Positions 1-17,690 of a stretch of DNA of 60,936 nt are shown one piece after another. The stretch is from a virus. Lineage: Duplodnaviria; Caudoviricetes. A program made the translations under genes and the position numbers. The DNA lies in the IMG/VR virus record IMGVR_UViG_3300028592_000010, positions 1-60,936 of that record; one strand, given 5' to 3'. The notes under the pieces were generated by a model. That model had not been told where the DNA came from. It saw only the letters and a program-made list of their open reading frames with translations, and made no database searches. Numbering within the stretch: position 1 is the first letter of the stretch; every line of letters begins with the position of its first letter.

Positions 1-132
1 CCCCGAGGGGCCCCGGCTGGGGCCCCCTCACTGCATGTGAGGAGGAGTGTGTTGGAACCGGTTCTGGAGCCGTTCATCGGCGACATCCGGGTGCAGGCCT
101 ACACGTTCCCGTCGCTGGCGGGGCGGCTGCCG
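1..132. repeat. Terminal direct repeat, left copy (circular overlap)
   Basis: 1-132 matches 60804-60936 except for a G4 vs G5 run near the start. Confidence 0.95.
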
Positions 133-615
133 AGGCTGGAGCTTCGCTGCGGCGTGCACCCCGACTGGTCCTCCTCCCTGGGGGAGGTGGTGACGCTGCC
201 CGAGTTGCTGGCGGTCGTCGAGACGCACCTGGAGGAACGGCATGGCTAGCCACCGGCGCCGTTCGGTGCCCAGCGCCCCGCCTCTGCCGTACACGGGCCC
301 TGGCCCGGCCGAGCGGAACCTGCTGGCGCGGCTGCACAGCAACGCCACGTACAAGGCCTCGGCGATGGGCTACCGCCTGCTCGACATGCGGGCCTACGAG
401 ATGCTCGACCCCTCTCGGGGGGTGGCCTGGTTCCGGCTGACCTTCGGCAACGTCGTGGTCTGGGCGGACGGGCTGGAGGAGGGGTCGCACTGGTCCGCGA
501 CGCTGGAGGCGGGCGCACAGGAGTACGCCCAGACAAAGGACCGGATCGGGCGCGTGGGGCGCCAGCCCGATGTAGTGTGAGGGCAGACAACATGTCACTG
601 GAAGGACTGACGATC

Positions 616-1911
616 ATGACAGACCGTGGCACGGCAAGCATCGAAGAACTCTTGCGCGCGCTGGAAGACGCGCACTTCACCGTGACCTCGGTGGGCGCAA
701 GGTACCGGGTCACCCACCCTGACGGTGGGCGTCCCACCTTCGTACCCAAGCGGCTGCCCAAGGGCGCCAGCCTCAAGCTGGTCATGGGGTCGCTCATGGA
801 CATCGGGTTCGACACGGACTCGGTGGAGCGGGCCCGGGAGGCGCGGCGTAAGGCGCGCGTCGAGCAGGCCCGCAAGGAGGGCGAACGGCTCAACAACATC
901 GCAGCAGCGGCGGCGGCCCAGCGCACGGCCGAGGCGGCCATCGCGACCGAGGCGGCGCGCGACGAGCGCCTGTACCAGGGCCAGCACAAGCTTCCCGACC
1001 TGCTCATCGAGACCCGGCTGCCCCGCACCGACTTCGTGGAGGTCGACGCCAAGTTCGCCGAGGAGTTGCTGCGGGCGAACCGGTTCTACGAGCCCGGGGC
1101 GACCCATGCGGGCAAGACCAACCGCAAGTTCCGGCCCGAGTTGGCCCGCAGGTACCGCGACCAGATGCTGCGCGGCGAGTGGGACCAGTTCACTCACCAG
1201 GCCATCGGCCTGGACGTGGAGGGCGACCTCGTGGACGGCCAGCACCGGCTGGCCGCCATCGTCCTGGCCGGGGAGGTCAAGCCGGACATCCGCATCCCCA
1301 TGCCGATCACCTACGACCTCCCGGTGGGCTCGTTCGACCGCATCGACCTCGGGCTGAAGCGCTCCCTGGGCGATGTGCTGGCCATGCACGGCTTCACCGA
1401 CGTCAACCACATCGGCGCCGTGCTGCGGTGGGTGGCGCTCTACGACACGCTCATCGGCGACCCGCCCGTGCCGTATGACCTCAGCACCTGGAAGCACTTC
1501 GGGCTCTCCGGTGAGCAGGCGTTGCACATGCTTCGTGATGAGCCCACCGTCCCGGAGAACTCACGCGCGGGTGTGCGGTTCCGCAAGATCATGCTGCCTT
1601 CGGCGGCGGGCACTGCCATCCATCTGCTCAAGCGCTACTGGCGGGCCGACCTGGTGGACGGGTTCGTGGACCGGCTGTACTCGGGCTACGACCTCGCGCC
1701 CCGCTCGGCCCTCGGGGCCCTGCGGGACGCCTACGTGACCCAGGCCTCCAACCGGAAGTACAAGCGGACCACGGTGGAGCAGTTGGCCCTGTGGATCAAG
1801 GGGTGGAACCTGCACCTCACCGGCAAGGAACGGAGCTTGCTGACGTGGCGGTCGCACGAAGAGTTCCCGCTGATCGACCTGCCCAAGAAGCGCGAGCACG
1901 AGCCCCGCTAG
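616..1911 (+). CDS. ParB/DGQHR-like nuclease-domain protein with N-terminal HicA-like segment
   Basis: NRK...GEW...IGLDVEGDLVDGQHRLAAIV motif; GAAGGA RBS at 601-606 before ATG 616. Confidence 0.6.
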   Translation: MTDRGTASIEELLRALEDAHFTVTSVGARYRVTHPDGGRPTFVPKRLPKGASLKLVMGSLMDIGFDTDSVERAREARRKARVEQARKEGERLNNIAAAAAAQRTAEAAIATEAARDERLYQGQHKLPDLLIETRLPRTDFVEVDAKFAEELLRANRFYEPGATHAGKTNRKFRPELARRYRDQMLRGEWDQFTHQAIGLDVEGDLVDGQHRLAAIVLAGEVKPDIRIPMPITYDLPVGSFDRIDLGLKRSLGDVLAMHGFTDVNHIGAVLRWVALYDTLIGDPPVPYDLSTWKHFGLSGEQALHMLRDEPTVPENSRAGVRFRKIMLPSAAGTAIHLLKRYWRADLVDGFVDRLYSGYDLAPRSALGALRDAYVTQASNRKYKRTTVEQLALWIKGWNLHLTGKERSLLTWRSHEEFPLIDLPKKREHEPR

Positions 1912-2855
1912 GGGTCTGGTTCGTCTACCCCGTTCGGGTCGAGGTCGCACCCCGGCCCGAACGGGACGGGCGGGTGCGCCTGGACGTGTGGTGCTTCCAC
2001 CGGCGGAAGTGGACGCTGCACGTCGAGGCGGGCCTGGTGGACTACTGGGTCGCCGACGCCCGCAGCAACCCGTGCCGGATGGCCTCCTGCCCCTTGTGGA
2101 AGCGGTCTTGATCTGTATAGTCAACCGAGACAGGCGGCTCCCGGGGAGACCCTGGGGAGGGCACGAGGGGCCGCCTGTCTCCGCAGGATCGCGTGGGCGT
2201 CCGGAAGATCCCCCGAGGCCCGGACGCTCACCGCGCGAAGGAGGACTGATGGCTTGGTGGACGCGGGCCCTGGCCCTGCGCGGGCAGGACACGACCCCAA
2301 CGACGCGGCGCGAGCCCTCGCCGGATGGCGTGCCTGACGAGTGGGCCGAGGTGGAGCGCCTGCACAACGTCATCAAGGCCGCCCTGGAGACCGTGGACGA
2401 GATGACCGGCCAGGCCAAGATGCTCCCCGGCCTGACCGATGACCTGCTGGACCTGCGCAAGATCCTGATGGAGGGGGAAGCCCATGCGGTACGTCGCCCT
2501 GGCCGCTGAGGCCTTGACCGCCGTACGCCTGTCCGGCCTGCTGGCCGGGCTGGGCCTGATGGGCCTTATGTACCTCGGCGCCCTCGACCGGCTCTACGGC
2601 CCCGGGCGCCACGCCGCTGGGCCTGGCCGCCCGAGTTGCACCGACCCGCGTGCGTGGGTGCGCCGTGTGAGTGACGAGCCCACTATCAGCCTCACCAAGC
2701 CGGCCCCGGGCGCCAAGGTCTACGACCAGTTGGCCCGCACCTCCCGGTTCGCCTCGGCGGTTCGCTCGATGCGCCGCCGCGAGAAGCACTTCACCGAGAT
2801 TGCCACCAGCCCGGCCCCGTGGCTGGTGCCCAACGACGATTGGACCTGATCCCCA

Positions 2856-3500
2856 ATGACCGTGCGTGCCCTGTTCATCACCGACGCCTCGGGCTCGATG
2901 CACCGCCTGGCCTCCGACGTGCGTGGCGGCTACAACTCCTACCTGGACAAGGTCACCGGCGAGAGCCCTGAGGTCCGGGTCACCTCCACCGTGTTCAACA
3001 CCGAGGTCCGCATCCTCGACGAGGACGTGGCCGTGGGCGCCGCGACCCGGTTCGACGACCACACCTACGACCCGCACGGCGCGACCGCCCTGCTCGACGC
3101 CATCGGCAACACGGTGAAGCGGCTGCGCCGCGACGTGGCGTTCATGCCCGGCGACCAGACGCTGCTGTTCATCCAGACGGACGGGCACGAGAACGCCTCC
3201 GTTGAGTGGGACCGCGCGGGCGTGGCCAAGCTGCTGGCCGAGGTCGAGGCGGAGGGCTGGAGCGTCATCTACAGCGGGGTGGGCCCGGACGGCTGGGCCG
3301 AGAAGGCGAGCCTGGGCCGCCAGTTCGGCACCTATTCGCCTGCCTCGGCGCAGGGGGTGGCCAGCACATACCAAGGGTACGAGGTTGTGACCCGCTCGGC
3401 GGCGGGCGGCCAGACACTCAACAGCGGCGTGGCCAACAAGATGTCCCAGGAGGTCATCGACGCGACGCCCGGGGCGAGTGAGCCCGATGTCCAGCCCTGA
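2856..3500 (+). CDS. vWA domain protein
   Basis: MIDAS motif DASGSM, plus TALLDAIG and IQTDGHENAS. Confidence 0.85.
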   Translation: MTVRALFITDASGSMHRLASDVRGGYNSYLDKVTGESPEVRVTSTVFNTEVRILDEDVAVGAATRFDDHTYDPHGATALLDAIGNTVKRLRRDVAFMPGDQTLLFIQTDGHENASVEWDRAGVAKLLAEVEAEGWSVIYSGVGPDGWAEKASLGRQFGTYSPASAQGVASTYQGYEVVTRSAAGGQTLNSGVANKMSQEVIDATPGASEPDVQP

Positions 3501-3779
3501 CCGGGTCGAGCACTTCCGGCGGCGCCGCTACGCCTACTGCCCGCACGAGGGCGTGGCGCGGTTCACGGTCGTCGACTACTGGCTGGCCTACCCGCCGCTG
3601 TACTGGTGCACCGGGTGCGGCTGGTCCTGGGAGCCCGGCGACAAGCCAGTGCCGCCCGAGCCCGGCCAGGGGGCCGTCGCGGCCCGGCGGGCCCACTCCC
3701 TCCTCCCGCCGCTGGACGCGGCGGCGTGGCGCAAGTTCATTCGGCAGATCAGTGAGGACTCAGAGCAGGAGGCAGCAGC

Positions 3780-4466
3780 GTGACCGACCAGCAGGCCAGC
3801 GACCGGGTGACCCACGACCTCAGCGTGGAGTACGTCGACATCGACACGGTGGCCGAGCACCCGGACAACCCCCGGCGCGGCAACACGCAGGTGATCGTTG
3901 AGTCGCTGCGCCGCACCGGTCAGTACCGGCCCCTGATCGTTTCGGCTGCGACGGGCTACGTGGTGGCCGGCAACCACACGCTGCGCGCGGCGCGGCTGCT
4001 CAACTGGGACCGGATCGCGGTCACCTGGCTGCACGGCCTGTCCGAGGAGGCAGAGCACCGCATCCTGGCCGTGGACAACCGGGCTGCCGACCTCGGCGAC
4101 TACGACACCGAGGCACTGATCGCCCTGCTGGACAACCTCGGCGAACTGGAGGGCACCGGCTACTCGGTGGACGACCTGGAGACCTTGCAGGCCCTGGCGG
4201 GCCGCGAGGTCACGTTCGCGGCGGGCGACACCGACGCGCACTACTCGGGCACCGACGCCGAGCGGGCCGAGCGGGCCGAACAGATCGGCAACTACCAGCC
4301 GCTCAAGGCGCAGGGTCTGGCCGAGGTCATCCTGGTGCTCACCGAGGCCAAGAAGACGCAGATGATCGACTGGCTCCAGGTGCTCCGCGCCAAGTGGGGC
4401 GACCAGATGACCAACGGGGAGTTGGTCTACGCGGCCGTGGCTCGCGCGGTGGACGCCGAACAGTGA
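3780..4466 (+). CDS. ParB-N-like domain protein (DNA-modification associated)
   Basis: HPDNPRRG...IVESLRRTGQYRPLIV...VVAGNHTLRAA...DNR. Confidence 0.85.
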   Translation: MTDQQASDRVTHDLSVEYVDIDTVAEHPDNPRRGNTQVIVESLRRTGQYRPLIVSAATGYVVAGNHTLRAARLLNWDRIAVTWLHGLSEEAEHRILAVDNRAADLGDYDTEALIALLDNLGELEGTGYSVDDLETLQALAGREVTFAAGDTDAHYSGTDAERAERAEQIGNYQPLKAQGLAEVILVLTEAKKTQMIDWLQVLRAKWGDQMTNGELVYAAVARAVDAEQ

Positions 4467-5410
4467 CCTCGTACGAGATCGGAGAGCGGGCGGGGCGCAT
4501 CGCCAAGCTGTGGACCCCGGGCGTGATCGACGACTACGCCCGGTTCCACTGGCTCGCCCTGGAGACTGGCGACGTGGACCCGGTCTACCCGGTGCTGCGC
4601 AAGCTGGAGATGGGCGTCAGCGACCTGGTGTGGCTGTCCTTCCTGCACGTCGCCTACTACGACCTCGGCTCGGCCCTGCGCGCCTTCGCCCGGCTGTCGT
4701 GGCGCCCCACCGAGGAGGTCCCCAACGCGGTGCTGCACTACCCGTGCGGCACCGAGCGGCGGGCGCACCGCGACCCGAGCCAGTTGCTGCGCCACCTGGA
4801 ATCCCTGCGGGCGCTGGCCGATCACTTCCAGGGCTTGCACCGTTTTGTGACAAGCGCCACCAGCTACGGGGACCTGTTCGGCAGGGTCATCTCCATCTGG
4901 GGTAACGGCCGGTGGGCCGCCTACAAGACCTGTGAGTTGCTGGCCTACGCGTTGGACCGGCCCGAGTGGGAGCCCACCGACATGGGGCACGCCCACTCCA
5001 CCGGCCCCCGCAAGGGGCTCGCGCTGATCTACGGCGGGCGCCTGCCCGAGGGCAACGGGCCCGCCGCCATTCACACCCTCAACACCTTGTCGGGCTGGCT
5101 CGTCAACGAGTTGGGCCGCCGCGACCTGGTTGCCAGTCAGGCGACCGCCGAGACCACCCTGTGCGACTTCCACTCCCTGGCTGGGGGCCGCTACTACGTG
5201 GGGCACGACATCGACCAGATGGGCATGCAGATCCGGCGCGGGCTGGAGACGGAGCGCCTGCACTACGAGGAGGGCCAGTCCGCCGCCCTGCGGTTCCTGC
5301 TCGACGCCAACCAGCGTGCGAGCGCGACGTTCGCCCATTGGGGCAACGACATCGACAAGGGCCGCCGACAGGTCTACAAGTTGACGGGAGAGATCCTTGA
5401 TCCACGTTGA
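4463..5410 (+). CDS. Amino acid:DNA transferase-like protein (aGPT-Pplase2 family, HhH-glycosylase-like fold)
   Basis: DVDPVY, AYY, GTERRAHR, GRWAAYKxxE, GPRKGL, ETTLCDFHSL..GRYYVGHDID; GTGA overlap with the ParB gene. Confidence 0.75.
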   Translation: MTSYEIGERAGRIAKLWTPGVIDDYARFHWLALETGDVDPVYPVLRKLEMGVSDLVWLSFLHVAYYDLGSALRAFARLSWRPTEEVPNAVLHYPCGTERRAHRDPSQLLRHLESLRALADHFQGLHRFVTSATSYGDLFGRVISIWGNGRWAAYKTCELLAYALDRPEWEPTDMGHAHSTGPRKGLALIYGGRLPEGNGPAAIHTLNTLSGWLVNELGRRDLVASQATAETTLCDFHSLAGGRYYVGHDIDQMGMQIRRGLETERLHYEEGQSAALRFLLDANQRASATFAHWGNDIDKGRRQVYKLTGEILDPR

Positions 5411-6314
5411 GGGGATGGGCTGGTTCGGCGCGGTGACCGCGCTCGCGCTGGAGCGGGCCGGCATCGAGTTCACCTGGTCCGACATCGACTCGCCCACCCA
5501 GGCCTGGAAGGCCTCCACCGGCATCGTCTACCCGGCCGGAGACGACCGCACCGAGCGGGAGCGCCTGTCCTGGACCCGGTGGTGGCTGAGTGACGACTGG
5601 CTGCCCGACCACACGGTGCGGCCCGTCACCTACGGCTTCACCCACAAGGCGCCACCGCATGGCGGCAAGTACGAGTGGGCCCGCTGGTCCTACGTGCCCG
5701 AGGTGAAGATCGCCGCCAAGCACGCCTTCGCGGTCGATGTGCAGGCCATCGTGGTCGAGGCCCGTTCCCGCTTCGCCGAGCGGCGCTGCGAGTACGTGGA
5801 CCCGGCGCGGTCGAAGATTGTCGCTCACGGCGCGCGCCGAGCGGTCGGCTGGGTGTGGGGCTGGAGCCGCAAGGTCAACCTGCGCTGGCCCGGTGGGGTT
5901 GAGGCGGACGGCATGAGCCTGTACGGCAAGGTCCACCGGTTCGGCCTCTGCTACGCCTACCCGGTGGGGGCCCAGCCGGGCTGGTGGTGGGCCGGCTCGG
6001 CCCTGGTCAACGAGAGGCGCCCCCGGGAGCGCGACGGGCGCGAGTTGGCCGACTACTACGAGCGCTGGCGCTCCGACTTCGCCCGGCTCTACCCCGGAGT
6101 GGACGTGGTGGAGTCCGGTCATGAGCCCATCCGGCAGGGCTGGCGGCCCAAGCCAAGCGAGAGCGATCCGGCGCTGCTGGGACTCACCGACACGCGGTGC
6201 GTCTTCCCGGCCCTGTGGCACTCGGGCGTGCGCTGGGCGCCCTCGTTGGTGGAGGGAGCGGTGCAGTGGGCAACTCGCGTGACCTCTTCTACGTCATCGG
6301 CCCTCCAGGCGTAG
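5397..6314 (+). CDS. FAD-dependent oxidoreductase/lyase-like protein
   Basis: N-terminal Rossmann motif IHVEGMGWFG, AWKASTG, GWRP, C-terminal HSGVRWAP (DAO/glycine oxidase-like). Confidence 0.7.
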   Translation: MIHVEGMGWFGAVTALALERAGIEFTWSDIDSPTQAWKASTGIVYPAGDDRTERERLSWTRWWLSDDWLPDHTVRPVTYGFTHKAPPHGGKYEWARWSYVPEVKIAAKHAFAVDVQAIVVEARSRFAERRCEYVDPARSKIVAHGARRAVGWVWGWSRKVNLRWPGGVEADGMSLYGKVHRFGLCYAYPVGAQPGWWWAGSALVNERRPRERDGRELADYYERWRSDFARLYPGVDVVESGHEPIRQGWRPKPSESDPALLGLTDTRCVFPALWHSGVRWAPSLVEGAVQWATRVTSSTSSALQA

Positions 6315-6838
6315 GCAAGTCCTCCCTGATGGCCGCCCTCACGGTGCGCTGCCACCGCTGGCCGAACGCCAAGCCGTTCCGCTACGACCTGCTCCGGGGC
6401 CCCTCGGGCTACGAGTTCGTCGAGTTGGGCGGTCAGCGCATCGGCGGGTTCCCCGGCACGGACGGCATGTCGATGTCGGTCCAGCCCCGGGTGGAGGAGT
6501 GGCTGCACCAGACCCGGGTGCCGCTCGTCCTCGGTGAGGGTGACCGCCTGGGCAACACCAAGTTCTTTGAGGCGGCGGTGCACGCAGGGTGGCGCCTGAA
6601 CGTTGTCGCCCTGATGGCCGACCGTAAAGAGTTGGATCGGCGCTGCCGGGAGCGCGGCTCGGAACAGTCCGAGACGTGGCGCAAGGGCCGGTTCACGAAG
6701 GTGGCCAACGTGACCAACTGGCTGACCACGGCCCATCCCGGCAGCGTCCGGCTGGTCACGGCCGACCGAACCCCGGGCACGCTGGTCGCGGCCCTGCGAC
6801 CGAGCTACCCGGACATCTTCGCCCTGCTGGAGGACTGA
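6266..6838 (+). CDS. P-loop nucleotide kinase
   Basis: Walker A GPPGVGKS, GTDGMSMSVQP, EGDRL, RCRERGSEQ lid; GGAGGG RBS at 6251 before GTG 6266. Confidence 0.8.
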   Translation: MGNSRDLFYVIGPPGVGKSSLMAALTVRCHRWPNAKPFRYDLLRGPSGYEFVELGGQRIGGFPGTDGMSMSVQPRVEEWLHQTRVPLVLGEGDRLGNTKFFEAAVHAGWRLNVVALMADRKELDRRCRERGSEQSETWRKGRFTKVANVTNWLTTAHPGSVRLVTADRTPGTLVAALRPSYPDIFALLED

Positions 6839-9388
6839 TGGAGCACTGGGGATTCTGGGCCCGGGCCATGGTGATCGTGCTCGTCGCCTGGGCGACCTGC
6901 GTGGCGCTGCTGATGGCCATGGTCCGCGTGGCGATGCTCGGCGCGGCGCTGACCTCGCTGGCCGCCCGGTCGGTGCGCGTCTGATGGAACGCCTGCTGCT
7001 CGGCCTCGTCAACGCGCTCATCGTCGTCATGCTGCTGGCCGTCATCCTCATGCTGGGCCTGGCCGTCCACTTCGCCTACACCGAGAGTTGGGGATGCTCG
7101 TGACCACCGTGTTCGTCATGATCGGCAACAGCGACGACAAGCTCTCCCAGGACGACTGGCACCAGTTCTGGGGCGAGACCTCGCAGGTGCTGCTGCCGGT
7201 GATCAAGGCCACGTACGGCGTCTGGTTCTCCGACCCGGTGGCGCGCTACCAGAATGCCTGCTGGGCGTTCGAGCCCTGGCCGCAGCACGAGTCCGAGGCC
7301 AAGGTCCGCCTGGCCCGTCTCGCCAGCAAGTGGGGCCAGGACTCGGTGGCCTGGGCGGAGGCCGAGGACACTGTGTTCCTCGGGCCCGCGTGGCTGTCCC
7401 ACCTCGACCCCGAGGAGGCCGAGGCCCTCGACGACGGGCACGCCTGGGCGGGCCTGGGGACCGAGGAGGGCAAGTGAGCCCACTTCAGGACTTCGACGAG
7501 ACCACCCCGAGGCCCGTGATCATCGTCTGCGAGACCGGCTCGGAGATGGACGGCATCCAGCGGGCGATCCTGCTGCTCATGAAGTACCCGGGCGTGCTCG
7601 CCGAGTCCGCCGCCGGCTGGATGTTGGTGCCCCGCCAGGCGGCCACCCACATCTCCGTTTCACGTGAAACCAAGGAGGAGAAGTGAGGCTGTTCCATCTG
7701 GAGCGCACCGAGGACGTGACGGGCGTGTCGGGCACGGGCGTGGTCGCCCAGGGCGTCGAGTTCGACGACCTCACGGTGGTCATCCGCTGGGGAAGCGCCA
7801 CCCCCTCCACGGTGGTCTGGGACCACATCGGCGACGCGATGGTGGTCCACGGCCACAACGGCCTGACCAAGCTGGTCTGGGACGACCGGGGCGACTGGTC
7901 GTGACCAGCGAGTTCCTCGCCCGGTTCGGCGACGCCCTGGCCGAGCAGGCCGCCAAGCCGCCCAGCGACCCCGTGGCGGCGCTCTCCTACGTCGCCTTCG
8001 CGGCCCTGGCCGTCGCGCTGGGCTGCCCGCCCGAACGGGTCGGAGACCTCCACCGGGACATGCACGCCCTGGCCCTGCCGGCTGGACCGCAGGCGGCGGT
8101 GGACCAGTTCCGCACCCACATCGACCTGTTGAGGGAGGACGGGCTGTGACCGAGCCCGAGGAGGAGTGGGTCCAGTTCGCCAAGGGGACCGTACTGTGCC
8201 CCTGGTGCAACGCCGAGGTGCCCGTGCCGGTGCTCGGGCGCATGTTCAACGACGACGAGGGCCGGCTGGCGATGGCCACCAAGCCCGACCTGACCGAGGT
8301 GTGGGCGCACGCCTGGACCCACGAGGAGGACACCGATGCCTAGCCCAACCGAACGGCTCACCGCCAACCTGACCGACGCCCTCGGGGCAGACGGGGCCCG
8401 GAAGGCGGCCCTCGTCATGGCGGACCTGTTGCTGGAGTTCGCCCAGCACGCCCTGGACCGGGGCAAGGCCTTCGCCCCATTCACCCAGGAGGCGGCCACC
8501 TTCGCCACGCTGTCCGGTTCGTACGTGGGCATGGCCGAGACCATTCACCGAATTGGGTGCGACGCCACCGACTGTGACTTCCTGGTCAACCTGGGGGACC
8601 TCCTCGCCCTGGCCCGCATGTGATGCAGACCCCGTTTCGGGAGACCGACGCCCTCCTGGCCGCCCTCGACAACGACGACGAGGCCCTGCTGGGCCACCTG
8701 GCGAGGATGCACGACGGCGAGGTGAGCAACCTTCGTCGGGCCGCCCTCAACATGGCCTTCGCCGCGCGGGAGGAGTTGGACCGCCGCTGGCAGCAGGCCA
8801 TGCAGGTCAAGCGCGCCATGCAGGTTAAGGCGCTGGACGACGTGGCCGATGACTGACCCACTGCTGGCGGCCCTCGACCGGTGCGAGCACGGGCGCCACC
8901 GGGCCGACCGCTGCTTCGACTGCCCGGACCAGTGGAGCACGGGCAACCTGTTCCTGCCGCCCGGCACCCGGATCGGCACCAACCTGTACGGCGACCCGAT
9001 CGTGGCGCCCGAGCAGGACAATCACGAGCGCGGCCAGCCAGCGAACTGGGTCGAGGGTGGGGCATTCAAGTGACCGACTGGGAAGCGCTGACCGCGCTCC
9101 AGATCATTGACCGGCTGCGCGACACGATCGTGGCCATGGGCCAGTACGTGGCCGGCCTGGAGTCCGAGGCACTGGAGACCGAACGCTCGGTGGCGTTCTG
9201 GACCGAGGAGGCCCGGCGCTACGCGGGCAACGCCGACTACTGGCGGGCGCGGACCACCGAGGCGGAGCGGGTCATACAGGCCGCGCGCGCCATGCCGGGG
9301 CACGAGCCGACCGAGGGGGAGCCCATGTGGTGCTGCCGCCTCCAGGACGCCCTGGCGACCTACGATCAGTGGCGGAAGGGGGGTAGCG

Positions 9389-10270
9389 ATGATCGAGTTG
9401 CGAGTGCGGAGCCGACTTCGCCAGGAGGACCTGCTGCCCAAGACCGGCAAGGTGCTGGGCCCGGCTGACTACGACGTGCTGCTCACCGGCCCCGCCAAGG
9501 TGCTCAAGCCGGACGGCAAGCCACTGTGCGTCTACCTTCCCGGCGCCCTCCGCGAATGGTCGCAGAGTGACACCATCTACGCCATTTTGCACGGGCTACG
9601 CACACACACCACCAACAACCGGGGCATGAGCGGCGGCGCAGGCGTCGACACCTCCCCCAGCGGCAAGCGCTACGCCCAGACCACCGCGTCCACCATCATC
9701 GGCGCCTTCGACCCGAACAGTTACCGCCGCTACTGCCGCCTCACCGCCTGGACCGGGCGCAACCTGCCGCAGTGGGAGGCGCTCCAGCCGTTCCTCGCCG
9801 CCATCGCCGAGCGGATGGCCGAGCACGTTCCCGACCGGCACGGGGCCCAGATGGCCGAGGTCATGCGCACCCAGCCCGAGTGGGTCGTGCCGGGCACCCC
9901 GTTCACCACGGTCACGGTCAACAACACCTACCCGACCGGGATGCACACCGACAAGGGCGACCTCGATGCCGGGTTCTCCACCCTCGCCACACTGCGCCGA
10001 GGCGGCGCGTATACGGGCGGCAACCTGATGTTCCCCGAGTACCGGTGCGCCGTGGACATGCGCGACGGAGACCTGCTGCTCATGGACGCCCACGAGTGGC
10101 ACGCCAACGCCGACATCGTCTGTGCCTGCGGAAACTCCATCCGGGCGATCTGTCCGACGTGCGGGGCGGAGCGCATCTCGGTGGTGAGTTACTTCCGCAC
10201 CGACATGGTCAACTGCAAGGACGCGGCCACCGAGGAACGGCGGGCCGCCGAGTGGTGGGCGAAGCGGTGA
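9389..10270 (+). CDS. TET/JBP-family 2OG-Fe(II) dioxygenase
   Basis: NRG, TPFTTVTVN, HTDKGD (HxD), GGNLMFPEY, HEWHAN (distal H), RISVVSYFR (2OG-binding R). Confidence 0.9.
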   Translation: MIELRVRSRLRQEDLLPKTGKVLGPADYDVLLTGPAKVLKPDGKPLCVYLPGALREWSQSDTIYAILHGLRTHTTNNRGMSGGAGVDTSPSGKRYAQTTASTIIGAFDPNSYRRYCRLTAWTGRNLPQWEALQPFLAAIAERMAEHVPDRHGAQMAEVMRTQPEWVVPGTPFTTVTVNNTYPTGMHTDKGDLDAGFSTLATLRRGGAYTGGNLMFPEYRCAVDMRDGDLLLMDAHEWHANADIVCACGNSIRAICPTCGAERISVVSYFRTDMVNCKDAATEERRAAEWWAKR

Positions 10271-11011
10271 AGTGGCGGGGCTATGTCACTCGGGGTGGGC
10301 TGACCATCGGGTTCGCGTTCCGGGGTTGGCCACGGAAGCGGAGGCGGAGGCGGCGGTGAGAGACTTGGGCCGCGCACTGTGGGTCATGGCCGTGCTGGCC
10401 TACCTGCTGGCCGCCGCCTGCCTGACGGGCGTGCTGGCGCAGGTTCGGCCATGAGGGGCTACTGGCCCGAGCCCGGCGACGAGTTGTACTCACCGCTGAC
10501 GGACTACTGGCTGAACGGGCCCGGCCGGGACCGGCTGGCCTTCCACTGGTCTCGCTACATGCGCAGGGAGCACGCCGCCCGGCTGCTGGGTGAGCCGGCT
10601 GAGCACGTGGCGGTGGTCAACATGGCGGGCGAGGTCGTGCTGGACACCGCGCTTCCGCCGCCGGATGGGCCCTCCTACTCGGCCCGCTGGCGGGCCTACC
10701 TGACCGCTGAGGACCTTGACTGGCTGGCGCGGATGTGGCGTGCGGGCGTAAGACATGAGGTGTGATCGCTGACATGAGGTCATACGTGAGTTGGGACGGC
10801 GGCGGCGCCGAGGTCTGCCTCAAGTGGCTGCCCCGCCACCACTGGGTGCGGGCCTTCATCTCCTGGTCAGGAAACTGTGAGCCCGGTCGGGCGTGGATGT
10901 ACCACGGCATGATCCGCCGCGATGCGTGGCGTGTGGGCCGGCTCGGGTTCGGCCTGTTGCGGATGCCGCGCGTAAGACATCACGTCAGCAATATGATGTA
11001 ACGTCTGACAC

Positions 11012-11197
11012 GTGAGCCTGGAGAAGTCGAGCCCGCTGGACCGCCAGTCTGGCGTCGAGGTGACCCGCGTGACCTTGTGGGTGCCGACCGAGTTGGTGGA
11101 GGAGGTCGACGCCCGGGCGAAGCGGCGCGGCGTGACCCGTTCCGAACTCATGCGGCGCGTTCTCGCCTACGGGCTCGGCGCGACTCGGGGGCAGTGA
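11012..11197 (+). CDS. Ribbon-helix-helix (CopG-like) DNA-binding protein
   Basis: RVTLWVPTELVEEVDARAKRRGVTRSELMRRVL. Confidence 0.8.
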   Translation: MSLEKSSPLDRQSGVEVTRVTLWVPTELVEEVDARAKRRGVTRSELMRRVLAYGLGATRGQ

Positions 11198-12285
11198 TGT
11201 ATGGTCGGGCGAGACTGACGAGAGGGGCGAACGTGACCGCCAGGCGCCGCCAGCAAGGCCTGTACTACGTAACCCGCAGTGGGCTGGAGATCGACCTGCT
11301 CGAACTCGACGCCCTGGACCAGATTCCCTACCCGGAGTGGCCCGGCCTCCAGGCCGCCGCCCGGTGGCTCTCCGACGAGGTGAAGCGGGCCGAGACCGAG
11401 CGGGTGGCGGTGCGCGACGCGGCGTGGAGCGCGGGCCTGCACGACGCCCAGGGCGCCATGGCTCGCCGCCGCCAGCGCCTCGACCCGCTCAACGGCAACT
11501 ACCCGACCGACACACCGAAGCCGTCTGGCTACTACTGCGAAGACTGCCTGGTGTTCGTGCCGGACGGCATCACCCACCCCCGGTGCCAGCCCGAGCTACC
11601 GGCCGAGGTGGGACCGTGACCGAGAGCACCTGGCAGATCCGCCCCAAGCCGGGAATGCCCTCGCTGCATGCCGTCATCAACGACCAGATCTACGACCTCT
11701 CGGAGAACGCCTGGCCGACCGACCCCATGGAGCGCGCCCTGGTGCGGGCCATGGTGATGGAGGTCGCCTCCCGCGCGTCCACGATCCACGTCACCCGGAC
11801 AGCCTGATGGGCGACGTGCTGACCGAGGCGGGCCTGGTGGAGTTGCTGGCCTCCCAGGGCATGGACACCTCCCACCGCACCCCAGCCTGCCGGTGCGAGG
11901 AGTACGAGGAACGCATCGCGGCCCTGGAGGCCGCCGAGGAGTCCTGGGACATCGCGCTGGACGCCAAGGACGACGAGATCAAGCGCCTCCAGGACCGCCT
12001 CCAGGCGGTGGAGAAGTCGCTGCGCGAGATGGCCGAGGCGGCCCGTGGAGACTGACCGGCCCATCACGTGGGTTCGGGCGGGGCCGTTCACCTACAAGGG
12101 GTTGAAGCTGAAGATGGCCCGAGACATGCAGATGACCCATCGGTGCGCGCGGTGCGGCCACGGCACCCCGGCGGGAAGCCTGACCGAGTTGCTGTTCGAG
12201 CCACCTACCGAGTGCCCCAACTGCGGTGGGACGATCAAGGTTCAGGCCTACGTCGGCAAGCCCATCGAGGAGGTGGAGGGGAGCG

Positions 12286-12888
12286 ATGGCCCGGAAGCCA
12301 CCGGAGTATGACGACTCCGACTTGCCCGACATCGGCACCTCGACCACGTCCGAGTTGCGCGGCGCCCTCGGCCTCGTAGCGCAGCCGGACGGACGGACCG
12401 ACAAGGCGTGGCGCAAGCCCAACACCATGAACGCCCGGGAGCTACGCGCGCTGGAGTTGGTGACCGCCGGGGCCACCTACGCCCAGATCGGCGCGGTCAT
12501 GAACATCACCCGGCGCAGCGCCATGGCGCTGGTCGACCGGGCCCTGGGCAAGCGCGCGCTGGAGATCGACTCCCAGACCCGCTCCCAGACCCGGGCTCTG
12601 GTGCTCGACCAGCTTGACCAACTGTGGCGGCGCTGGTGGCCGCTGGCCCTGGGCGACCCGCGCGCCGGCACGCCGCCCGACAAGGACGCGGCCGACGTGG
12701 TGCTGAAGATCCACGACCGGGTGGTGCGCATCCAGGCCCTCGATGCGCCGATCCAGGTCGAGGTCAACGCCGACATCGTGGTCTCCCTGGAGGACCGGGC
12801 CAACCGGCAGGCCAAGATCCTGGCCGACCTGGCCGAGGTGGCAGCCCGCCAGCAGGCGATCGAGGGCGAGTTCCGGGAGGCGTCATGA
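12286..12888 (+). CDS. HTH protein, probable terminase small subunit
   Basis: RALELVTAGATYAQIG HTH followed by QLDQLW..WWP..G...A.DVVLKI.DR..RI..LDAP, an actinophage TerS-like pattern. Confidence 0.55.
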   Translation: MARKPPEYDDSDLPDIGTSTTSELRGALGLVAQPDGRTDKAWRKPNTMNARELRALELVTAGATYAQIGAVMNITRRSAMALVDRALGKRALEIDSQTRSQTRALVLDQLDQLWRRWWPLALGDPRAGTPPDKDAADVVLKIHDRVVRIQALDAPIQVEVNADIVVSLEDRANRQAKILADLAEVAARQQAIEGEFREAS

Positions 12889-13221
12889 GCACCCCGATGT
12901 CGGTGCGCGGGTTCTGCCCGCTCGGCTGCGGCGAGACGCTCGTCCTGCTCGGCGAGGAGGTCATGTGCTTCCAGGCCGAGTGCCCCAACCCGTACGCGGT
13001 CACCGCCATCCTGGGCGACCAGGAGACAGAGCATGTCGTACGGGTGGACGACGGTGGGGCCACCATCCGCCACCCGATCAGGGAACGCATCGAGGACGCT
13101 CTGATGGACTGCCACCTCACCCTCAACTGGCGGGCCCGGCTCAAGCCGTACGGGCTCTACCGGGTGACCGGCGAGGGCACCGGCTGGGAGCGCATTGAGG
13201 GCGTCCACCGGGAGGGCACCG

Positions 13222-13953
13222 ATGACTGAAGCCCTGGCCGAGGCGACCGTCACCGCCCCACCGGCCAACGAAGCCAACGTGCGCATTGGCGTGGTCGCCG
13301 ATGACTCGCCGCTGACCATCACGGTCCAGGACTCCCCGATCGCCTCCCCCGGGTTCCTGTCCGACTGGCGCCCCGTACTCGGCGACAACGTGGCCGTGCT
13401 TCGCCAGGACGAGACGTGGCTGGTCCTGGGGGCGATCCACTCGAACGGCGCCTCCCTGCTCGGACGCGGCGGCACCATCATCGGCGCCAACATCGGCATC
13501 GGCGGCGGCATCCCGGCTAGCTCCGCTGGGGCCGAGGTCGCGTTTCCCTCGGCCAGTTGGGCGGTGGAGTCCACGTACGTGTGGCTGCCTGGCCAGATGT
13601 ACCGGCTGGACTACCAGATGTCCCCCAACTGCTCGGGCGCGGGTGCCCAGTGGGGTGTCTACCGCATCCGTCTTGGTGCACAGTCCACCACCGGCTCGCT
13701 GGTCGGTCAGCACTACGCCCAGTACCCGGCGGGCTTCGCCGACTTCGGCAAGAGTGAGTGGGGCCACCTCTGGCTGTTCAACGCAGGCTCGGTGGCAGTC
13801 TCCAGCAAGCTATCCCTCACAGCCGACTTTGATGTGGGCGTGGGCTCGCTTGGCATCTACGGGGGCGATTCGGACGCCCCCACCTTCATCGTGTGCACCC
13901 ACGTGGGGGCTGTCGCGGACAGCCTGTTCAACGTGGGCTTCCAGGTGGGGTGA
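13222..13953 (+). CDS. Minor tail-like protein (outside the tail module)
   Basis: N-terminal RIGVV..SPLTI...FLSDWRPVLGDNVAVLRQDETWLVLG followed by a beta-rich C-terminus. Confidence 0.5.
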   Translation: MTEALAEATVTAPPANEANVRIGVVADDSPLTITVQDSPIASPGFLSDWRPVLGDNVAVLRQDETWLVLGAIHSNGASLLGRGGTIIGANIGIGGGIPASSAGAEVAFPSASWAVESTYVWLPGQMYRLDYQMSPNCSGAGAQWGVYRIRLGAQSTTGSLVGQHYAQYPAGFADFGKSEWGHLWLFNAGSVAVSSKLSLTADFDVGVGSLGIYGGDSDAPTFIVCTHVGAVADSLFNVGFQVG

Positions 13954-15945
13954 GACACATGGTCGCGTACACCGCAGTTGTCCAGGCCGAGCAGTGGACC
14001 GGCACCCCCGCCGCCCAGCGCGCCATCGAGGACCTCGTGGCCGCCCAGCGGCGAGGCGGGTCCTATGACCAGGTTCAGGTTGCAGGCGAAGACCTTTGGC
14101 TGACGTGCTCGAACCCAAAGCCCAGCGGCATACCTGTCCCGGTCAACGTGCGCATCGGCGAGTGGCTGGTCTATGGGGATGCGCCCCAGCCGGTCGGTCA
14201 CCCGGCGATCTACGACGACACGACGTTCGTTGCCCGCTACGCCCGGGTGCCAGGCGCATGAGCGGCCACCGCCCGTTCCGCGACCTGCGGCTGGACTGGC
14301 CCCAGCCGTTCGAGGTCCTGGAGCAGTTCTACTACGAGCACGCGCGGCGCATGAGCGTGCTGGCCGACATGGGCTGCACGGTGTGCGGCGACCCGGCCAC
14401 GGTGCTGATCGAGTGGCCCAAGCACGTCTTCTCCGTCTCCCTCGACCCTGGCGCCCTGCGCGAGACCCGGACCATCACCATCACCGAGGAGGTGCGGTTC
14501 CTGTGCGAGATGCACGCTCGGGCCTGACCATCCCGGACGACCAGGCCTGGCACGTCCGGGGCATCCCGACCACCCACCGGGGCCCGTTCAACGACTGGGC
14601 CGCCCGCCCGGATGGGCGGCGCCTGCGGTGCGGGCTGATCATCAACGCCACCTACGTGGCCGGCCCCGCTCCGAGTGGTGAGCCGTGCCCGGAGTGCAGC
14701 CGGTGGACCGATGCGTGAGCGTTCGGGTGTGCGCCTGCGCTACCTTCCCCTGGAGGAGGCGACGAGGCCGCCTACGGGCGGGGTGGTCGAGGTCTACACC
14801 GACCGCTGGTGGGCCCATCAGCCCGGCCTGGGCCTGCTGATGTTCGGCAAGGTGCCGCAGTGGACGCCGAACTCATCTACAACTGCGGGGACTACGTATG
14901 ACCGACGATCGCACCCTTCCCGAGGGCCTGACTCGGGCGATGTTTGACGCCATTCGGGACCTGCGCGAGTGGGTCACCCCGCCGCCGGCCCCGGACGCCG
15001 AGGTGCAGGCGTGGCCGCTGTTCAGCGGCTGGGAGTATGGCGGTGTCTACTGCGCCAAGGACGAGTGCGGCTGCGCGGCCGAGGGCAGTGAACTGATCCG
15101 GGGCGACGACCGGATGGGGGACGAGGCCGAGACCTTCACGTTGGCTGACCTCCACCGCCGCATCGGTGGGGCGGGCCGAGGAGGAGGGGGTGTGATGGGG
15201 CGCGGCCAGACCACTGCCGAGTTCGCGGCCAGCCACGGCCCGAACTGGGTCTACGACGGCGGCCTGCCCGGCGATCCCGGCTGGGTGAGCGACGCGGCGC
15301 GCGAGTTCGGGGACCTGCTCGGCCTGGACGCGGAAGCCCTGGACGACGCTGCGGCGGAGCACGGGTGGGAGTTCCATGACCCGGGCTACGACGAGAAGAT
15401 CCAGCAGCTTGCCCTGACGTGGGGCGAACAGTGAGCAGCCCGGCCGACCGCCTGGCGGATGGGCGGGGCAGCCTGCGCGACCTGGCCGAGTTGGACCAGG
15501 CCCGGGCGGCCACCGTCGAGGACCTGAACCGCCTGCTGGTCGGCTACGCCCAGGCCATGCGCGACCTCGGGCCCGACCGGGCCCACTGCGCCTACGTCAC
15601 CGGCCTGCTGCGTGACTGGGACGAGGTCACCATGGCCTGCGCCCTCGTCGAGGCAGTGGAGCGCCTGGTGCGGCGCCTGGACGAGCAGGGGGCGCGCACC
15701 TAGTCTGGTGTCGTGACAGACACGACGGAGCCATACGACCACGACCCGAACTACGACCCGGCGGCGGCCCGCAAGGCCGAGAAGCACGAGGCCTTCGTGG
15801 CCGAGTACCAGACCCGCTACGGCGGCGCCGGGCGTGACGCCGAGTCGGTGGCCAGAGTCTTCGGCCTGGAGGGCGAGCCGCCCAGCAACGAGGTCGAGGT
15901 GGACCCGGACGCCGAGTCGTCCCCCAACGTCGGGCACAAGTAGCC

Positions 15946-16827: not shown

Positions 16828-16903
16828 CCCGCGCGGGCGCTACGCGCGGTGATCGCTAGCTGGTACGCTGCGCCCAACCGCCCAGCGACCACTGGAGCAT
16901 GCG

Positions 16904-17413: not shown

Positions 17414-17414
17414 C

Positions 17415-17624
17415 GTGATCACCAAGCGCAAGAGCAGCCACTCCGCCGAGAGCGCCAACTGCGTTGCGCTGTGGGACTTCGGCGACGAGGTGGCCCTCGG
17501 CGACACCAAGGGCCCCAACTGGCAGATGGCCTGGTTCGACCGGGCGGCCTGGACCGACTTCGTCCAGGCGGTCGGACGGGGCGAGTTCGACCGGCCACGA
17601 GGCCGTGCTGCGCCGTCTCTGTAA
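17415..17624 (+). CDS. DUF397-family protein
   Basis: RKSSHS..ANCVAL...VALGDTK.P...F..AAW..FV.AV..GEF. Confidence 0.8.
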   Translation: MITKRKSSHSAESANCVALWDFGDEVALGDTKGPNWQMAWFDRAAWTDFVQAVGRGEFDRPRGRAAPSL

Positions 17625-17690
17625 GGTGTGAACGCGAGGGCGCCGCCGAGAGGCCCCTAACCCCCACGGCCCACTCCCCTACGGACCAAC

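Follow-up and report, generated by a model that had tools for sequence, protein, structure and literature searches.

The complete genome of a soil phage (a virus record of 60.9 kb, rated 100% complete by CheckV and referred to in its entirety as the window) carries a cassette of five genes that probably hypermodifies thymidines in the phage DNA post-replicatively, once copying by the host polymerase is complete. All five genes lie on the + strand. Four of them overlap at 3780–6838 (by 4, 14 and 49 nt) and encode a ParB-like protein (3780–4466), an amino acid:DNA transferase (AADT, formerly aGPT-Pplase2; 4463–5410, in an open reading frame that opens at 4394), a flavoenzyme of DAO/GR2 fold predicted to be an N-alpha-aminoacyl-thymine oxidase or 'lyase' (5397–6314), and a P-loop kinase predicted to act on 5-hydroxymethyluracil (5hmU) in DNA (6266–6838). 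The fifth, at 9389–10270, encodes a TET/JBP-family Fe(II)/2-oxoglutarate dioxygenase predicted to turn thymine into 5hmU on DNA, and starts 2.55 kb after the kinase stop codon. The original prediction for this DNA, which had placed five genes here with the TET/JBP gene 2.5 kb downstream of four overlapping ones, is borne out in both respects.

We envisage the following course of modification. The dioxygenase, acting with the ParB-like protein, would hydroxylate the methyl group of some thymines to give 5hmU, as the family and its context suggest; the kinase, a member of the Ploopntkinase3 family, would phosphorylate the new hydroxyl, yielding 5-phosphomethyl-dU; the transferase would put a free amino acid, attached through its alpha-amino group and taken from precedent to be glycine, in place of the phosphate; and the oxidase would trim the amino-acid adduct, with imine hydrolysis releasing glyoxylate and leaving 5-aminomethyl-2'-deoxyuridine, kept unacetylated as the final base. 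Judging from the literature, such a base would probably shield the phage DNA from host nucleases. A more specific version of this scheme strikes us as possible, if rather more apt to fail than to hold: that aminoacyl-thymine oxidases include a second family, represented by this oxidase and recruited separately from gp47 of phage PaMx11, and that free 5-aminomethyl-dU is the final base of the virion, made from thymine in DNA by way of a kinase family not known to phosphorylate DNA.

A candidate thymine dioxygenase and its ParB-like partner

The product of the TET/JBP gene matches PF12851 (Tet_JBP) with 59.6 bits against a cut-off of 34.9, and with 61.9 bits in a six-frame search. Its true start is the ATG at 9389, which has a ribosome-binding site upstream (GGAAGGGGGG), and its homologs, which span its full length, measure 293–300 aa; the first 94 codons of the open reading frame beginning at 9107 fall outside the gene. 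Across 44 aligned homologs, the Fe(II) triad (H186-x-D188 and H238) and the 2-oxoglutarate-binding R262 never vary; C245, C247, C255 and C258 form a Cys4 insert, and an invariant C276 is followed by a 17-residue tail that is predicted to be helical. Fold search was needed to place the protein among solved structures, a sequence profile having found no match to PDB sequences at E ≤ 0.1. The AF2 model (pLDDT 90.7) has NgTET1, CcTet, human TET2 and CMD1 as its top PDB matches (E 4e-12 to 4e-9), and resembles FTO and AlkB more weakly than the solved TET enzymes (about 1e-7 to 4e-6).

The ParB-like protein scores below the Pfam cut-off for ParB_N (E 1e-3, 19.6 bits against 26.3) and matches PHROG 723, 'ParB-like partition protein', at 4e-38. 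A profile built from 33 homologs matches the N-terminal domains of Spo0J, ParB and Noc (E 2e-6 to 8e-5), and the match is confined to that domain, at profile positions of about 9–117. In its architecture, a ParB/Srx nucleotide-binding domain at the N terminus is followed by a linker and then by a small C-terminal domain; no HTH DNA-binding domain was recognisable by profile comparison. Among the best 80 of 364 relatives in the collection reached via the dioxygenase, a ParB homolog lies beside the TET gene in 69, as it does in 19/21 TET loci reached via the oxidase.

As described in O'Toole 2026 (PMC13229309), phage 5mYOX enzymes linked to ParB make 5hmU from T and require their ParB on dsDNA. 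ParB linkage at 69 of the 80 TET loci is the mark of ParB-dependent phage thymine dioxygenases, which supports the TET protein as the source of 5hmU within DNA, and the ParB-like protein is probably an activator of the dioxygenase, a role that the original prediction did not propose. The window protein resembles 5mYOX176 of that study in its length of about 293 aa and in having a near-terminal conserved Cys (position 280 in 5mYOX176) with a C-terminal tail beyond it, and its ParB homolog resembles ParB176 in combining nucleotide-binding and C-terminal domains with no evident DNA-binding domain. Linked AADT and P-loop kinase genes are likewise described for the ParB-dependent 5mYOX subclass in O'Toole 2026 (PMC13229309). 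Unlike in the 5mYOX176/ParB176 pair, the window ParB gene adjoins the transferase gene rather than the TET gene. In E. coli only about 1–35% of T was oxidised, with some sequence preference, in the experiments reported there (PMC13229309), so modification in the phage may also be partial.

Enzyme families absent from the genome

The complete 60.9-kb record holds no thymidylate-synthase-like enzyme, C5-methyltransferase, dCMP deaminase or DNA polymerase, and no TET-associated glycosyltransferase (TAGT), PLP enzyme or GNAT acetyltransferase. None of these families turned up when 85 ORF models were scanned against Pfam and PHROG, and six-frame searches of the whole record at E ≤ 1 gave 0 matches for PF00145, PF00303, PF00383, PF00476, PF00136, PF20691, PF18748, PF18723, PF00291 and PF00583. 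The claim that the genome lacks a dUMP hydroxymethylase, dCMP deaminase, C5-methyltransferase, glycosyltransferase and DNA polymerase accordingly holds in both kinds of search. The absence of a ThyA-like enzyme, a C5-methyltransferase and a polymerase, together with the ParB linkage in the best 80 of 364 loci, also agrees with the idea that the TET/JBP enzyme makes 5hmU from T on DNA; its preference for T over 5mC is predicted from this context, and a methyltransferase of the host may still be at work. Since the acetyltransferase, the PLP enzyme and the TET-associated glycosyltransferase are all missing, a free amine is the likely final base, and the unacetylated aminomethyl-U proposed earlier is our best guess too, with context in its favour. 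So far, 5-aminomethyl-dU is known solely as a pathway intermediate.

Kinase and transferase

The kinase matches PF18751 (Ploopntkinase3) with 81.7 bits against a cut-off of 27, carries the Walker A motif GPPGVGKS, and likely starts at the GTG at 6266, after GGAGGGAG, rather than at 6197. Among the known counterparts, gp54 of phage M6 matches PF18748 at 65 bits and is partnered by a PF18723 protein, and gp49 of PaMx11 matches PF18748 weakly; neither PF18748 nor its helical partner PF18723 has a match anywhere in the window genome at E ≤ 1. All three kinases nevertheless fall into one remote-homology group, PHROG 800, which suggests that the window kinase belongs to a sister family of the 5hmU DNA kinases and possibly does the same job. 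The view that it replaces the usual 5hmU DNA kinase is therefore right at the level of Pfam (PF18751 versus PF18748/PF18723) and wrong if taken to mean an unrelated kinase. The literature we searched holds no Ploopntkinase3 member shown to phosphorylate 5hmU in DNA. Genes of this family are often annotated 'terminase small subunit' or 'adenylate kinase'.

Gene neighbourhoods tie the kinase to the rest of the cassette. A kinase gene is present in all 21 TET loci reached via the oxidase and in 64 of the best 80 of 364 reached via the dioxygenase; in most of these 64 the TET gene directly abuts it, in contrast to the 2.55 kb between the two in the window. TET, kinase and ParB occur together in 55 of the same 80 loci (32+21+2). 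The transferase was found in 26 of these 80 by an HMM built in this analysis and in a further 10 by Pfam, every time with the kinase, and in 0/10 kinase-less TET loci examined. This confinement of the transferase to kinase-bearing loci agrees with the kinase supplying the leaving group for the transferase.

As for the transferase itself, it matches PF18724 (ADDT) at 1.3e-13 (51.7 bits, cut-off 26.2), and when compared with the active-site residues of PaMx11 gp46 (PUGT) listed in Wen 2024 (PMC11472151) it is identical at 9/12. The residues kept are D39, Y66, E98, W151, K155, E230, T231, C234 and D249; the PUGT positions so conserved include D24, W146, K150, E243, T244 and C247, and thereby both the D, W and K that bind glycine and the E-T-x-x-C motif that clamps metal and base. 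With Pfam score and active site in agreement, 4463–5410 does encode the aGPT-Pplase2 member that had been proposed. The three changed residues (PUGT Y47, K261 and E265, which are H62, H248 and Q252 here) line the putative phosphate pocket, and a His at the PUGT-261 position is found in 11/15 TET-context transferases as against 0/10 classical ones. Under the more specific version of the scheme, such a pocket might further mean that the leaving group made by the kinase differs from that made by 5-HMUDK. While family membership and active site are directly apparent, the substrate is predicted: the family is known to act on phosphorylated 5hmU (PMC8989533; PMC11472151), its published donors are Gly, Ser, putrescine and diaminopropane (PMC8989533; PMC13458397), and glycine is here taken from precedent, as the sequence does not reveal the amino-acid donor.

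At the level of Pfam models, the families assigned earlier hold for the ADDT, Ploopntkinase3 and Tet_JBP proteins, all above their cut-offs, whereas ParB_N falls below its own and the flavoenzyme has no match; NCBIfam gave no useful match for any cassette protein.

A predicted aminoacyl-thymine oxidase

The protein encoded at 5397–6314 matches no Pfam, PHROG or NCBIfam model, and the claim that it is an FAD enzyme, which proves right, is visible by fold only. Its AF2 model (pLDDT 94.5) has the fold of D-amino-acid, glycine and sarcosine oxidases, with Foldseek E-values of about 1e-12 and, in VIA, Z scores of 20–23 and an rmsd of 3.4–4.0 over 274–287 residues. Among the matches listed by the two programs are DAAO, glycine oxidase, CmiS2, IdaA and the FAD domain of MnmC, and the VIA Z score is 23.3 to 1c0k, 22.1 to 4ysh and 21.9 to 6pxs. 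The structure of PaMx11 gp47 (8Z2O/8Z79) is absent from the 50 matches that each program listed, which carries no weight given that cut. When compared with solved structures as a sequence profile, the protein finds 6pxs alone, at E 0.19 and over the Rossmann start. The N-terminal Rossmann motif, GxGxxG, has conserved G6, G8 and G11, and D29 is an invariant acidic residue. The protein is modelled as a two-domain FAD amine oxidase of the DAO/GR2 fold, its use of flavin being predicted.

Three of the fold matches, MnmC, IdaA and CmiS2, are enzymes that remove an N-carboxymethyl group. The oxidase domain of MnmC, which converts cmnm5U to nm5U in tRNA, aligns to the model through its DAO-fold FAD domain (3ps9 266–637) with Z 20.5 and rmsd 3.6 over 280 residues, although many other amine oxidases score within about 3 Z units of this match. 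Both enzymes would carry out the same chemistry, an N-linked carboxymethyl being taken off 5-aminomethyl-uracil, although MnmC acts on tRNA, is fused to a methyltransferase and has 15% sequence identity to the window protein. Lee 2021 (PMC8989533) drew this parallel for gp47.

The oxidase family comprises 218 cluster representatives and is without a Pfam or PHROG model. Its gene adjoins an ADDT gene in 37/38 loci, the lone exception beginning at a contig end. Where TET is missing, 11/14 loci are PaMx11-like clusters with HMUDK markers, 7/11 of which add a thymidylate-synthase-like gene. In the 26 transferase-bearing TET loci (within the best 80 of 364), the gene lying between those for transferase and kinase encodes an oxidase of gp47/NGTO type in 16 and a member of the window's family in 2. 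One homolog (P0299) joins the oxidase and a GNAT acetyltransferase in a single protein, in line with gp47 and gp48 of PaMx11 acting at successive steps as given in Lee 2021 (PMC8989533).

By sequence, the oxidase shows no detectable relationship to PaMx11 gp47: hhalign gives a probability of 25% over 29 columns, at the Rossmann start alone, and the family HMM scores 6 bits on gp47. PaMx11 gp47, Phelemich gp4 and Kozie gp3 have PHROG 16743 in common, and the window family lies outside any PHROG. In a MAFFT alignment at ~15% identity or less, W51, Y180 and R242 of NGTO (base-stacking Trp, wedge Tyr and carboxylate-binding Arg) align with W37 (59/59), Y186 (58/59) and R250 (58/59) of the oxidase family.

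Other readings of the cassette

The same pathway logic could lead to a different end product, a reading that we consider unlikely but far from negligible: the donor would be a non-glycine amino acid or an amine, the base would be other than 5-aminomethyl-dU, or a small ORF would modify the amine further. The several donors known in the transferase family (PMC8989533; PMC13458397) speak for it, as do the departure of H62, H248 and Q252 from the glycine enzyme, with the His at PUGT-261 that marks TET-context transferases, the separation of the oxidase family from gp47, and the ~2 kb of family-less ORFs that the cassette encloses. Yet the transferase retains the D, W and K with which PUGT contacts glycine, the residue that aligns with the carboxylate-binding Arg of NGTO is kept in all but one of the 59 sequences (at the low alignment identity given above), and the GNAT fusion of the oxidase homolog implies a primary-amine product; moreover, oxidative N–C-alpha cleavage of any N-alpha-linked amino acid would leave the same aminomethyl group. 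Somewhat more improbable than the foregoing is that few thymines are marked at specific sites, for packaging, replication timing or gene regulation, instead of being modified in bulk for protection. The sequence preferences (YTY, NTR), partial oxidation and epigenetic-like role discussed in O'Toole 2026 (PMC13229309) would suit such marking; against them stands the nuclease resistance that the account in PMC8989533 ties to every characterised thymidine hypermodification. Its position at the genome end beside the terminase in cultured relatives would suit such marking too, but in the window 17 kb separate the cassette from the terminase gene (at 23997).

We regard it as very improbable that the five genes fail to make up a single thymine pathway, the dioxygenase acting on host-made 5-methylcytosine or the kinase being an ordinary nucleotide kinase. 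It is true that NgTET1, TET2 and CcTet, structurally the nearest solved enzymes, are 5mC oxidases; the genome, however, is without a C5-methyltransferase, and only 6% of the phage 5mYOX neighbourhoods reported in O'Toole 2026 (PMC13229309) contain one. Against the Pfam name of PF18751, 'nucleotide kinase', and the position of the TET gene away from the other four stand the joint occurrence of TET, kinase and ParB in 55 of the best 80 of 364 loci, the confinement of the transferase to kinase loci, and phosphorylated 5hmU as the substrate known for its family (PMC8989533; PMC11472151).

Relation to known systems

Post-replicative hypermodification of thymidine by these five genes is a pathway type that earlier publications had predicted (Lee 2021; O'Toole 2026; phage Tonitrus), and the window is a new example, not a new principle; the original prediction missed both the published scheme and the same five-gene set annotated in cultured actinophages. 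In the literature searched, no TET-initiated thymidine hypermodification pathway has an identified end product: the account in O'Toole 2026 (PMC13229309) ends at 5hmU, and the downstream steps for such contigs are predictions in Lee 2021 (PMC8989533).

The 5-AcNmdU pathway of PaMx11 comprises the glycine:DNA transferase PUGT (gp46), the flavin-dependent N-alpha-GlyT oxidase NGTO (gp47), an acetyltransferase (gp48) and 5-HMUDK (gp49) (PMC8989533; PMC11472151). The predicted order of chemistry in the window is the same, from 5hmU through phosphate ester and amino-acid adduct to oxidative trimming; the transferases belong to one Pfam family and agree in most active-site residues, and an oxidase of the same fold superfamily directly follows the transferase gene. 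The systems differ in that PaMx11 makes 5hmU before replication, with a thymidylate-synthase-like enzyme and its own polymerase, whereas the window has TET/JBP and ParB, a PF18751 kinase lacking the PF18723 helical partner, an oxidase of a different sequence family and no acetyltransferase.

Closer in gene content is the 'five-gene thymidine hypermodification system' of actinophages, which has the same five functions in one operon and is carried by Rhodococcus phage Tonitrus (PMC11955845), seven Gordonia phages such as MakoManhole, and the Mycobacterium phages Phelemich and Reprobate. The window oxidase is 38–45% identical to Gordonia gp5 and Tonitrus gp8, and the transferase 39–43% identical to its actinophage counterparts. 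Gene order differs, though, Phelemich and Kozie carry a gp47-type oxidase, and the window TET is of another subtype: the tblastn matches at E ≤ 1e-5 include no actinophage TET and are to genes of Pelagibacter, Nonlabens and Caulobacter phages, at 30–39% identity. The fifth gene in the Gordonia phages and Tonitrus is annotated 'hypothetical protein' or 'oxidoreductase'. Trypanosome JBP1/2, which carry out the first step of base J synthesis, offer a further parallel, a TET/JBP-family enzyme that turns T into 5hmU in finished DNA and so primes a bulkier modification; base J is glucosylated, unlike the product of the kinase–transferase–oxidase route predicted here, for which no glycosyltransferase was found.

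As a compact and complete gene set without pool-level enzymes or polymerase, the cassette could reveal every step that leads from thymine within DNA to a base bearing an amine. It gives a testable function to the oxidase family, including the 'hypothetical' fifth gene of the Gordonia phages and Tonitrus, and to the Ploopntkinase3 kinase, a member of an often mislabelled family. Labelling of intact dsDNA would also benefit from enzymes that equip its thymines with a primary amine.

Surroundings of the cassette

Between kinase and TET, the + strand carries small ORFs (6984–9073, ~2 kb) that match no Pfam, PHROG or NCBIfam family and stand outside the proposed pathway. A promoter and terminator scan of 1–18000 returned 0 sites of either kind. 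ARAGORN called a 'tRNA-Pyl' (anticodon CTA) that could have extended the TAG-terminated oxidase gene; read-through would add 5 residues, and we discarded the candidate, the tRNA being unconfirmed by Rfam. Four of the small ORFs (7088–7477, 7683–7904, 8336–8623 and 8849–9073) have homologs in the closest relative (L007), and 7683–7904 has a further one in a second relative (L012). The phage is present as contigs in 13 soil-metagenome runs (2019), none of them listed as RNA and all flagged as possible sources.

Organization of the cassette

The record is complete according to CheckV (completeness 100%; 60,936 bp), has a G+C content of ~70% over its whole length and carries a siphovirus-like structural module plus an endolysin in Pfam and PHROG scans, with the terminase gene at 23997, portal at 25784, major head protein at 38751, tape measure at 45516, replication initiator at 54694 and RecT at 56307. 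Four plus-strand genes at 3780-6838 overlap by 4, 14 and 49 nt, and a fifth, also on the plus strand, lies beyond a 2.55-kb block of small ORFs. They encode a ParB-like protein (3780-4466; PHROG 723, 4e-38; Pfam ParB_N at 19.6 bits, under the cut-off), an amino acid:DNA transferase (4463-5410; PF18724, 51.7 bits), a protein matching nothing in Pfam, PHROG or NCBIfam (5397-6314; hereafter, the oxidase), a P-loop kinase (PF18751, 81.7 bits) and a TET/JBP dioxygenase (PF12851, 59.6 bits). The coordinates and families first read from the sequence were right, judging from profile scores for four products and from the fold of the oxidase, but two starts had to be moved. The kinase is best started at GTG 6266, preceded by GGAGGGAG, and the true TET start is ATG 9389, preceded by a strong ribosome-binding site and giving a product of 293 aa (full-length homologs, 293-300 aa). 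Downstream of the kinase, a 73-aa plus-strand ORF of no known family (7683-7904; GC3 0.96) has homologs at the same position in two viral contigs (L007, 49%; L012, 64%) and may be either a sixth gene of the conserved set or merely a common actinophage gene.

The third gene encodes a protein with an amine oxidase fold

A word-indexed protein search returned 101 homologs of the oxidase, and an exhaustive search 218 cluster representatives at E ≤ 1e-3, 197 of them at E ≤ 1e-30; by sequence searching, the family is small and sharply bounded. AF2 modelling from 59 sequences (pLDDT 94.5) gave the fold of FAD amine oxidases. Foldseek matched it at E ~1e-12 to D-aspartate, D-amino-acid, N-methyltryptophan, sarcosine, glycine and iminodiacetate oxidases, and VIA-align gave effectively tied matches (rmsd 3.4-4.0 over 274-287 residues) to 1c0k (Z 23.3), glycine oxidase 4ysh (Z 22.1), CmiS2 and IdaA (both Z 21.9) and the MnmC FAD domain (Z 20.5). 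The family also keeps a GxGxxG motif and an acidic residue after strand 2. The earlier call of an FAD enzyme is therefore borne out by these fold matches and motifs rather than by any family library.

We also compared the oxidase with gp47, the N-alpha-GlyT oxidase of phage PaMx11. In a MAFFT alignment at identity of ~15% or less, Trp51, Tyr180 and Arg242 of gp47 fall on the family-invariant W37, Y186 and R250, and profile methods detect the Rossmann start alone; the residue correspondence is suggestive only. Two homologs are natural fusions. In P0299 a GNAT acetyltransferase lies C-terminal to the oxidase, uniting in one chain what are two consecutive steps in PaMx11, and in P0370 the part after the oxidase matches a P-loop weakly.

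Transferase and kinase

The structures of PaMx11 gp47 and of gp46, the glycine:DNA transferase (PUGT), have been solved with DNA (Wen et al. 2024, PMC11472151), and we compared the window transferase in a 25-sequence alignment with 12 residues named there for gp46. Nine of the 12 are kept, among them the glycine-holding Asp, Trp and Lys and the metal-binding, base-clamping Glu-Thr-x-x-Cys; together with the PF18724 score, this upholds the assignment of 4463-5410 to the aGPT-Pplase2 group. The three differences (Y47H, K261H and E265Q) all lie in the pocket proposed in that work for the leaving phosphate. Among transferases from TET/PF18751 contexts, 11 of 15 have His at the PUGT Lys261 position, against none of 10 from classical HMUDK (5-hmdU DNA kinase) contexts, a correlation with kinase type that comes without an explanation; nine of the same 15 have His in place of Tyr47.

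The kinase had been proposed to stand in for the 5hmU DNA kinase. The reference enzyme, M6 gp54, belongs to PF18748 and has a PF18723 neighbour, and PaMx11 gp49 gives a weak PF18748 match, whereas the kinases of the window and of phages MakoManhole, Tonitrus, Phelemich and Kozie belong to PF18751. The replacement thus stands at the level of Pfam families, but it is by a sister family: PHROG 800, mislabelled 'terminase small subunit', is common to M6 gp54, PaMx11 gp49 and all the PF18751 kinases compared.

5hmU would be made on finished DNA

A phage of this kind might obtain 5hmU either before replication, as a modified nucleotide, or by oxidizing thymine already in DNA. Pfam and PHROG scans of 85 ORF models revealed no enzyme making modified nucleotides before replication. 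Six-frame family searches of the whole record likewise gave no match at E ≤ 1 to C5-methyltransferases, thymidylate synthase/dUMP hydroxymethylase, dCMP deaminase, family A or family B DNA polymerases, TET-associated glycosyltransferases, the classical 5-hmdU DNA kinase or its helical partner, PLP-dependent enzymes or GNAT acetyltransferases; for common families, positive controls gave matches in reference genomes. Since neither modified-nucleotide enzymes nor a DNA polymerase were found, the host polymerase must copy the phage from unmodified dTTP, and thymine could be modified only once the DNA has been made.

The TET is a good candidate for this step. Residues invariant across 44 homologs comprise the Fe(II) triad, the arginine for 2OG, four cysteines within an insert and one cysteine near the terminus, and the AF2 model of the TET (pLDDT 90.7) scores clearly better against NgTET1, CcTet, TET2 and CMD1 than against FTO and AlkB. 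In the ParB family, the N-terminal ParB domain is joined through a variable linker to a C-terminal block that is conserved, and the family's profile matches the N-terminal domain alone of canonical ParB, Spo0J and Noc. [quoted passage not shown] 2026, PMC13229309). With tblastn (1e-5), the window TET matched none of the TETs of cultured actinophages and found relatives at 30-39% identity in phages of Pelagibacter (beside a ParB-like gene), Nonlabens and Caulobacter and in other phages; on this comparison, it is of another subtype than those of the cultured actinophages.

A conserved core with interchangeable tailoring modules

Scanning viral contigs with the oxidase alignment yielded 38 loci, whose ORFs were scored with HMMs from the window and four cultured actinophages. 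The transferase gene adjoins the oxidase in 37 of them, the exception (L013) starting at the oxidase. TET and a PF18751-like kinase co-occur in 21, and the kinase is also present in the truncated L013; a deeper ParB profile placed ParB with TET in 19 of the 21, the others being cut at the TET (L009) or having no ParB (L027). Both TET and kinase are missing in 16 loci, 14 of which were scanned with Pfam (near-copies L038 of L037 and L042 of L040 were omitted). Here the classical markers HMUDK_hel and/or HMUDK_HMUD1 appeared in 11, seven of which also had a thymidylate-synthase-like gene, a layout like that of PaMx11; GNAT was found in none of the 14 (E ≤ 1e-5; ORFs ≥100 aa; -4 to +5 kb of the oxidase). 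In a maximum-likelihood oxidase tree (n = 31; near-copies L011, L020, L021, L022, L034, L038, L041 and L042 omitted), the window's oxidase falls in a strongly supported group of nine, every one of them from a TET context. On the opposite side the two contexts are intermingled, and at least three switches between them occur, so the oxidase and transferase genes have together changed partners between suppliers of 5hmU that act before replication and those that act after it. L024 and L034, the latter from a 327-kb contig, carry two TET and three ParB-like paralogs in tandem, adjoining the transferase, oxidase and kinase genes.

A scan with the TET alignment found 364 relatives in viral contigs. 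Among the best 80 of the 364 loci, ParB is present in 69, the kinase in 64 (in most, directly abutting TET), the transferase in 26 by its own HMM and the window-type oxidase in just two (the same contigs as L007 and L044). An HMM from PaMx11 gp47, Kozie gp3 and Phelemich gp4 detected a gp47-type oxidase in 16 of the 26 transferase-bearing loci, always between transferase and kinase, the slot that the window's own oxidase occupies. For 37 loci with ParB and TET in which the HMM detected no transferase, Pfam analysis of 73 ORFs recovered a divergent ADDT (amino acid:DNA transferase) in 10, a PLP-dependent enzyme (PALP) in 24, a radical SAM/SPASM enzyme in one (L093) and a TET-associated glycosyltransferase, without kinase, in one (L108). 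The commonest layout among the 80 was ParB, divergent ADDT, PLP-dependent enzyme, kinase and TET, which suggests a ViI-like serine/decarboxylation branch fed by the dioxygenase. None of the 10 kinase-less TET loci examined had a transferase, and such strict pairing is consistent with the kinase supplying the leaving group that the transferase displaces. The conserved core is thus ParB, kinase and TET, its tailoring modules are interchangeable, and the window's module is rare.

Relation to earlier work and predicted product

The cassette is real and adds one more example, with an uncommon tailoring module, to a kind of system already described. Such operons were reportedly first predicted by Iyer et al. 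in 2013. In situ formation of 5hmU was proposed by Lee et al. (PMC8989533), the initial step and ParB's role were proven by O'Toole et al. (PMC13229309), and the Tonitrus genome note (PMC11955845) describes the same five genes as a thymidine hypermodification system, the fifth as 'hypothetical'. Seven Gordonia phages also carry the set, at the left genome end. New here are the assignment of the oxidase family by fold and context, the kinase-transferase link, the modular core and the corrected gene starts.

For the pathway as a whole, predicted from families, fold and locus context, the originally proposed route through dioxygenase, kinase, transferase and flavoenzyme is the best supported, and we consider thymidine hypermodification moderately likely. 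Within that pathway, the prediction of free 5-aminomethyl-dU as the end product is about evenly balanced. We found no paper identifying the product in which a TET-initiated route ends, and none testing a PF18751 kinase; supplements of the cited papers may bear on both.

Other features of the genome and its relatives

Misannotations of these families are systematic in GenBank and PHROGs (public records L004, L006 and L045, hits H54-H58): TET appears as 'queuine tRNA-ribosyltransferase' (Phelemich gp2; PHROG 6059) or 'SNF2 DNA repair protein' (Cr30, DLP_6, S-CBWM1), and the DNA kinase as 'terminase small subunit' (M6 gp54, PaMx11 gp49, Phelemich gp5; PHROG 800) or 'adenylate kinase'.

On the minus strand at 17744-17815, ARAGORN calls an amber-reading tRNA (anticodon CTA, 'tRNA-Pyl') beside tRNA-Met and tRNA-Asp(ATC); Rfam confirmed the latter two at gathering score but not the first. 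TAG ends 10 of 69 gene models, including the oxidase gene, which read-through would extend by 5 residues only.

The structural region encodes three very large proteins (25784-36422, +): a 991-aa portal whose PHROG match spans residues 5-587 only, a 1039-aa protein almost without family match and a 927-aa protein whose C-terminal half matches portal/protease-type PHROGs. Weak HicA_toxin Pfam matches, under the cut-off, occur at 37605-37898 (-; E 5e-4), followed by a DUF7239 gene (37892-38299), and at 577-1911 (+; E 1e-2). Tape-measure matches are split over two overlapping plus-strand ORFs (45516-46922, 468 aa; 46844-47302, 152 aa), and the tape measure could be short, or divided by a frameshift or an assembly error. 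The last part of the tail gene block (53365-54138, +) encodes a ricin-type beta-trefoil lectin domain, possibly that of a receptor-binding protein.
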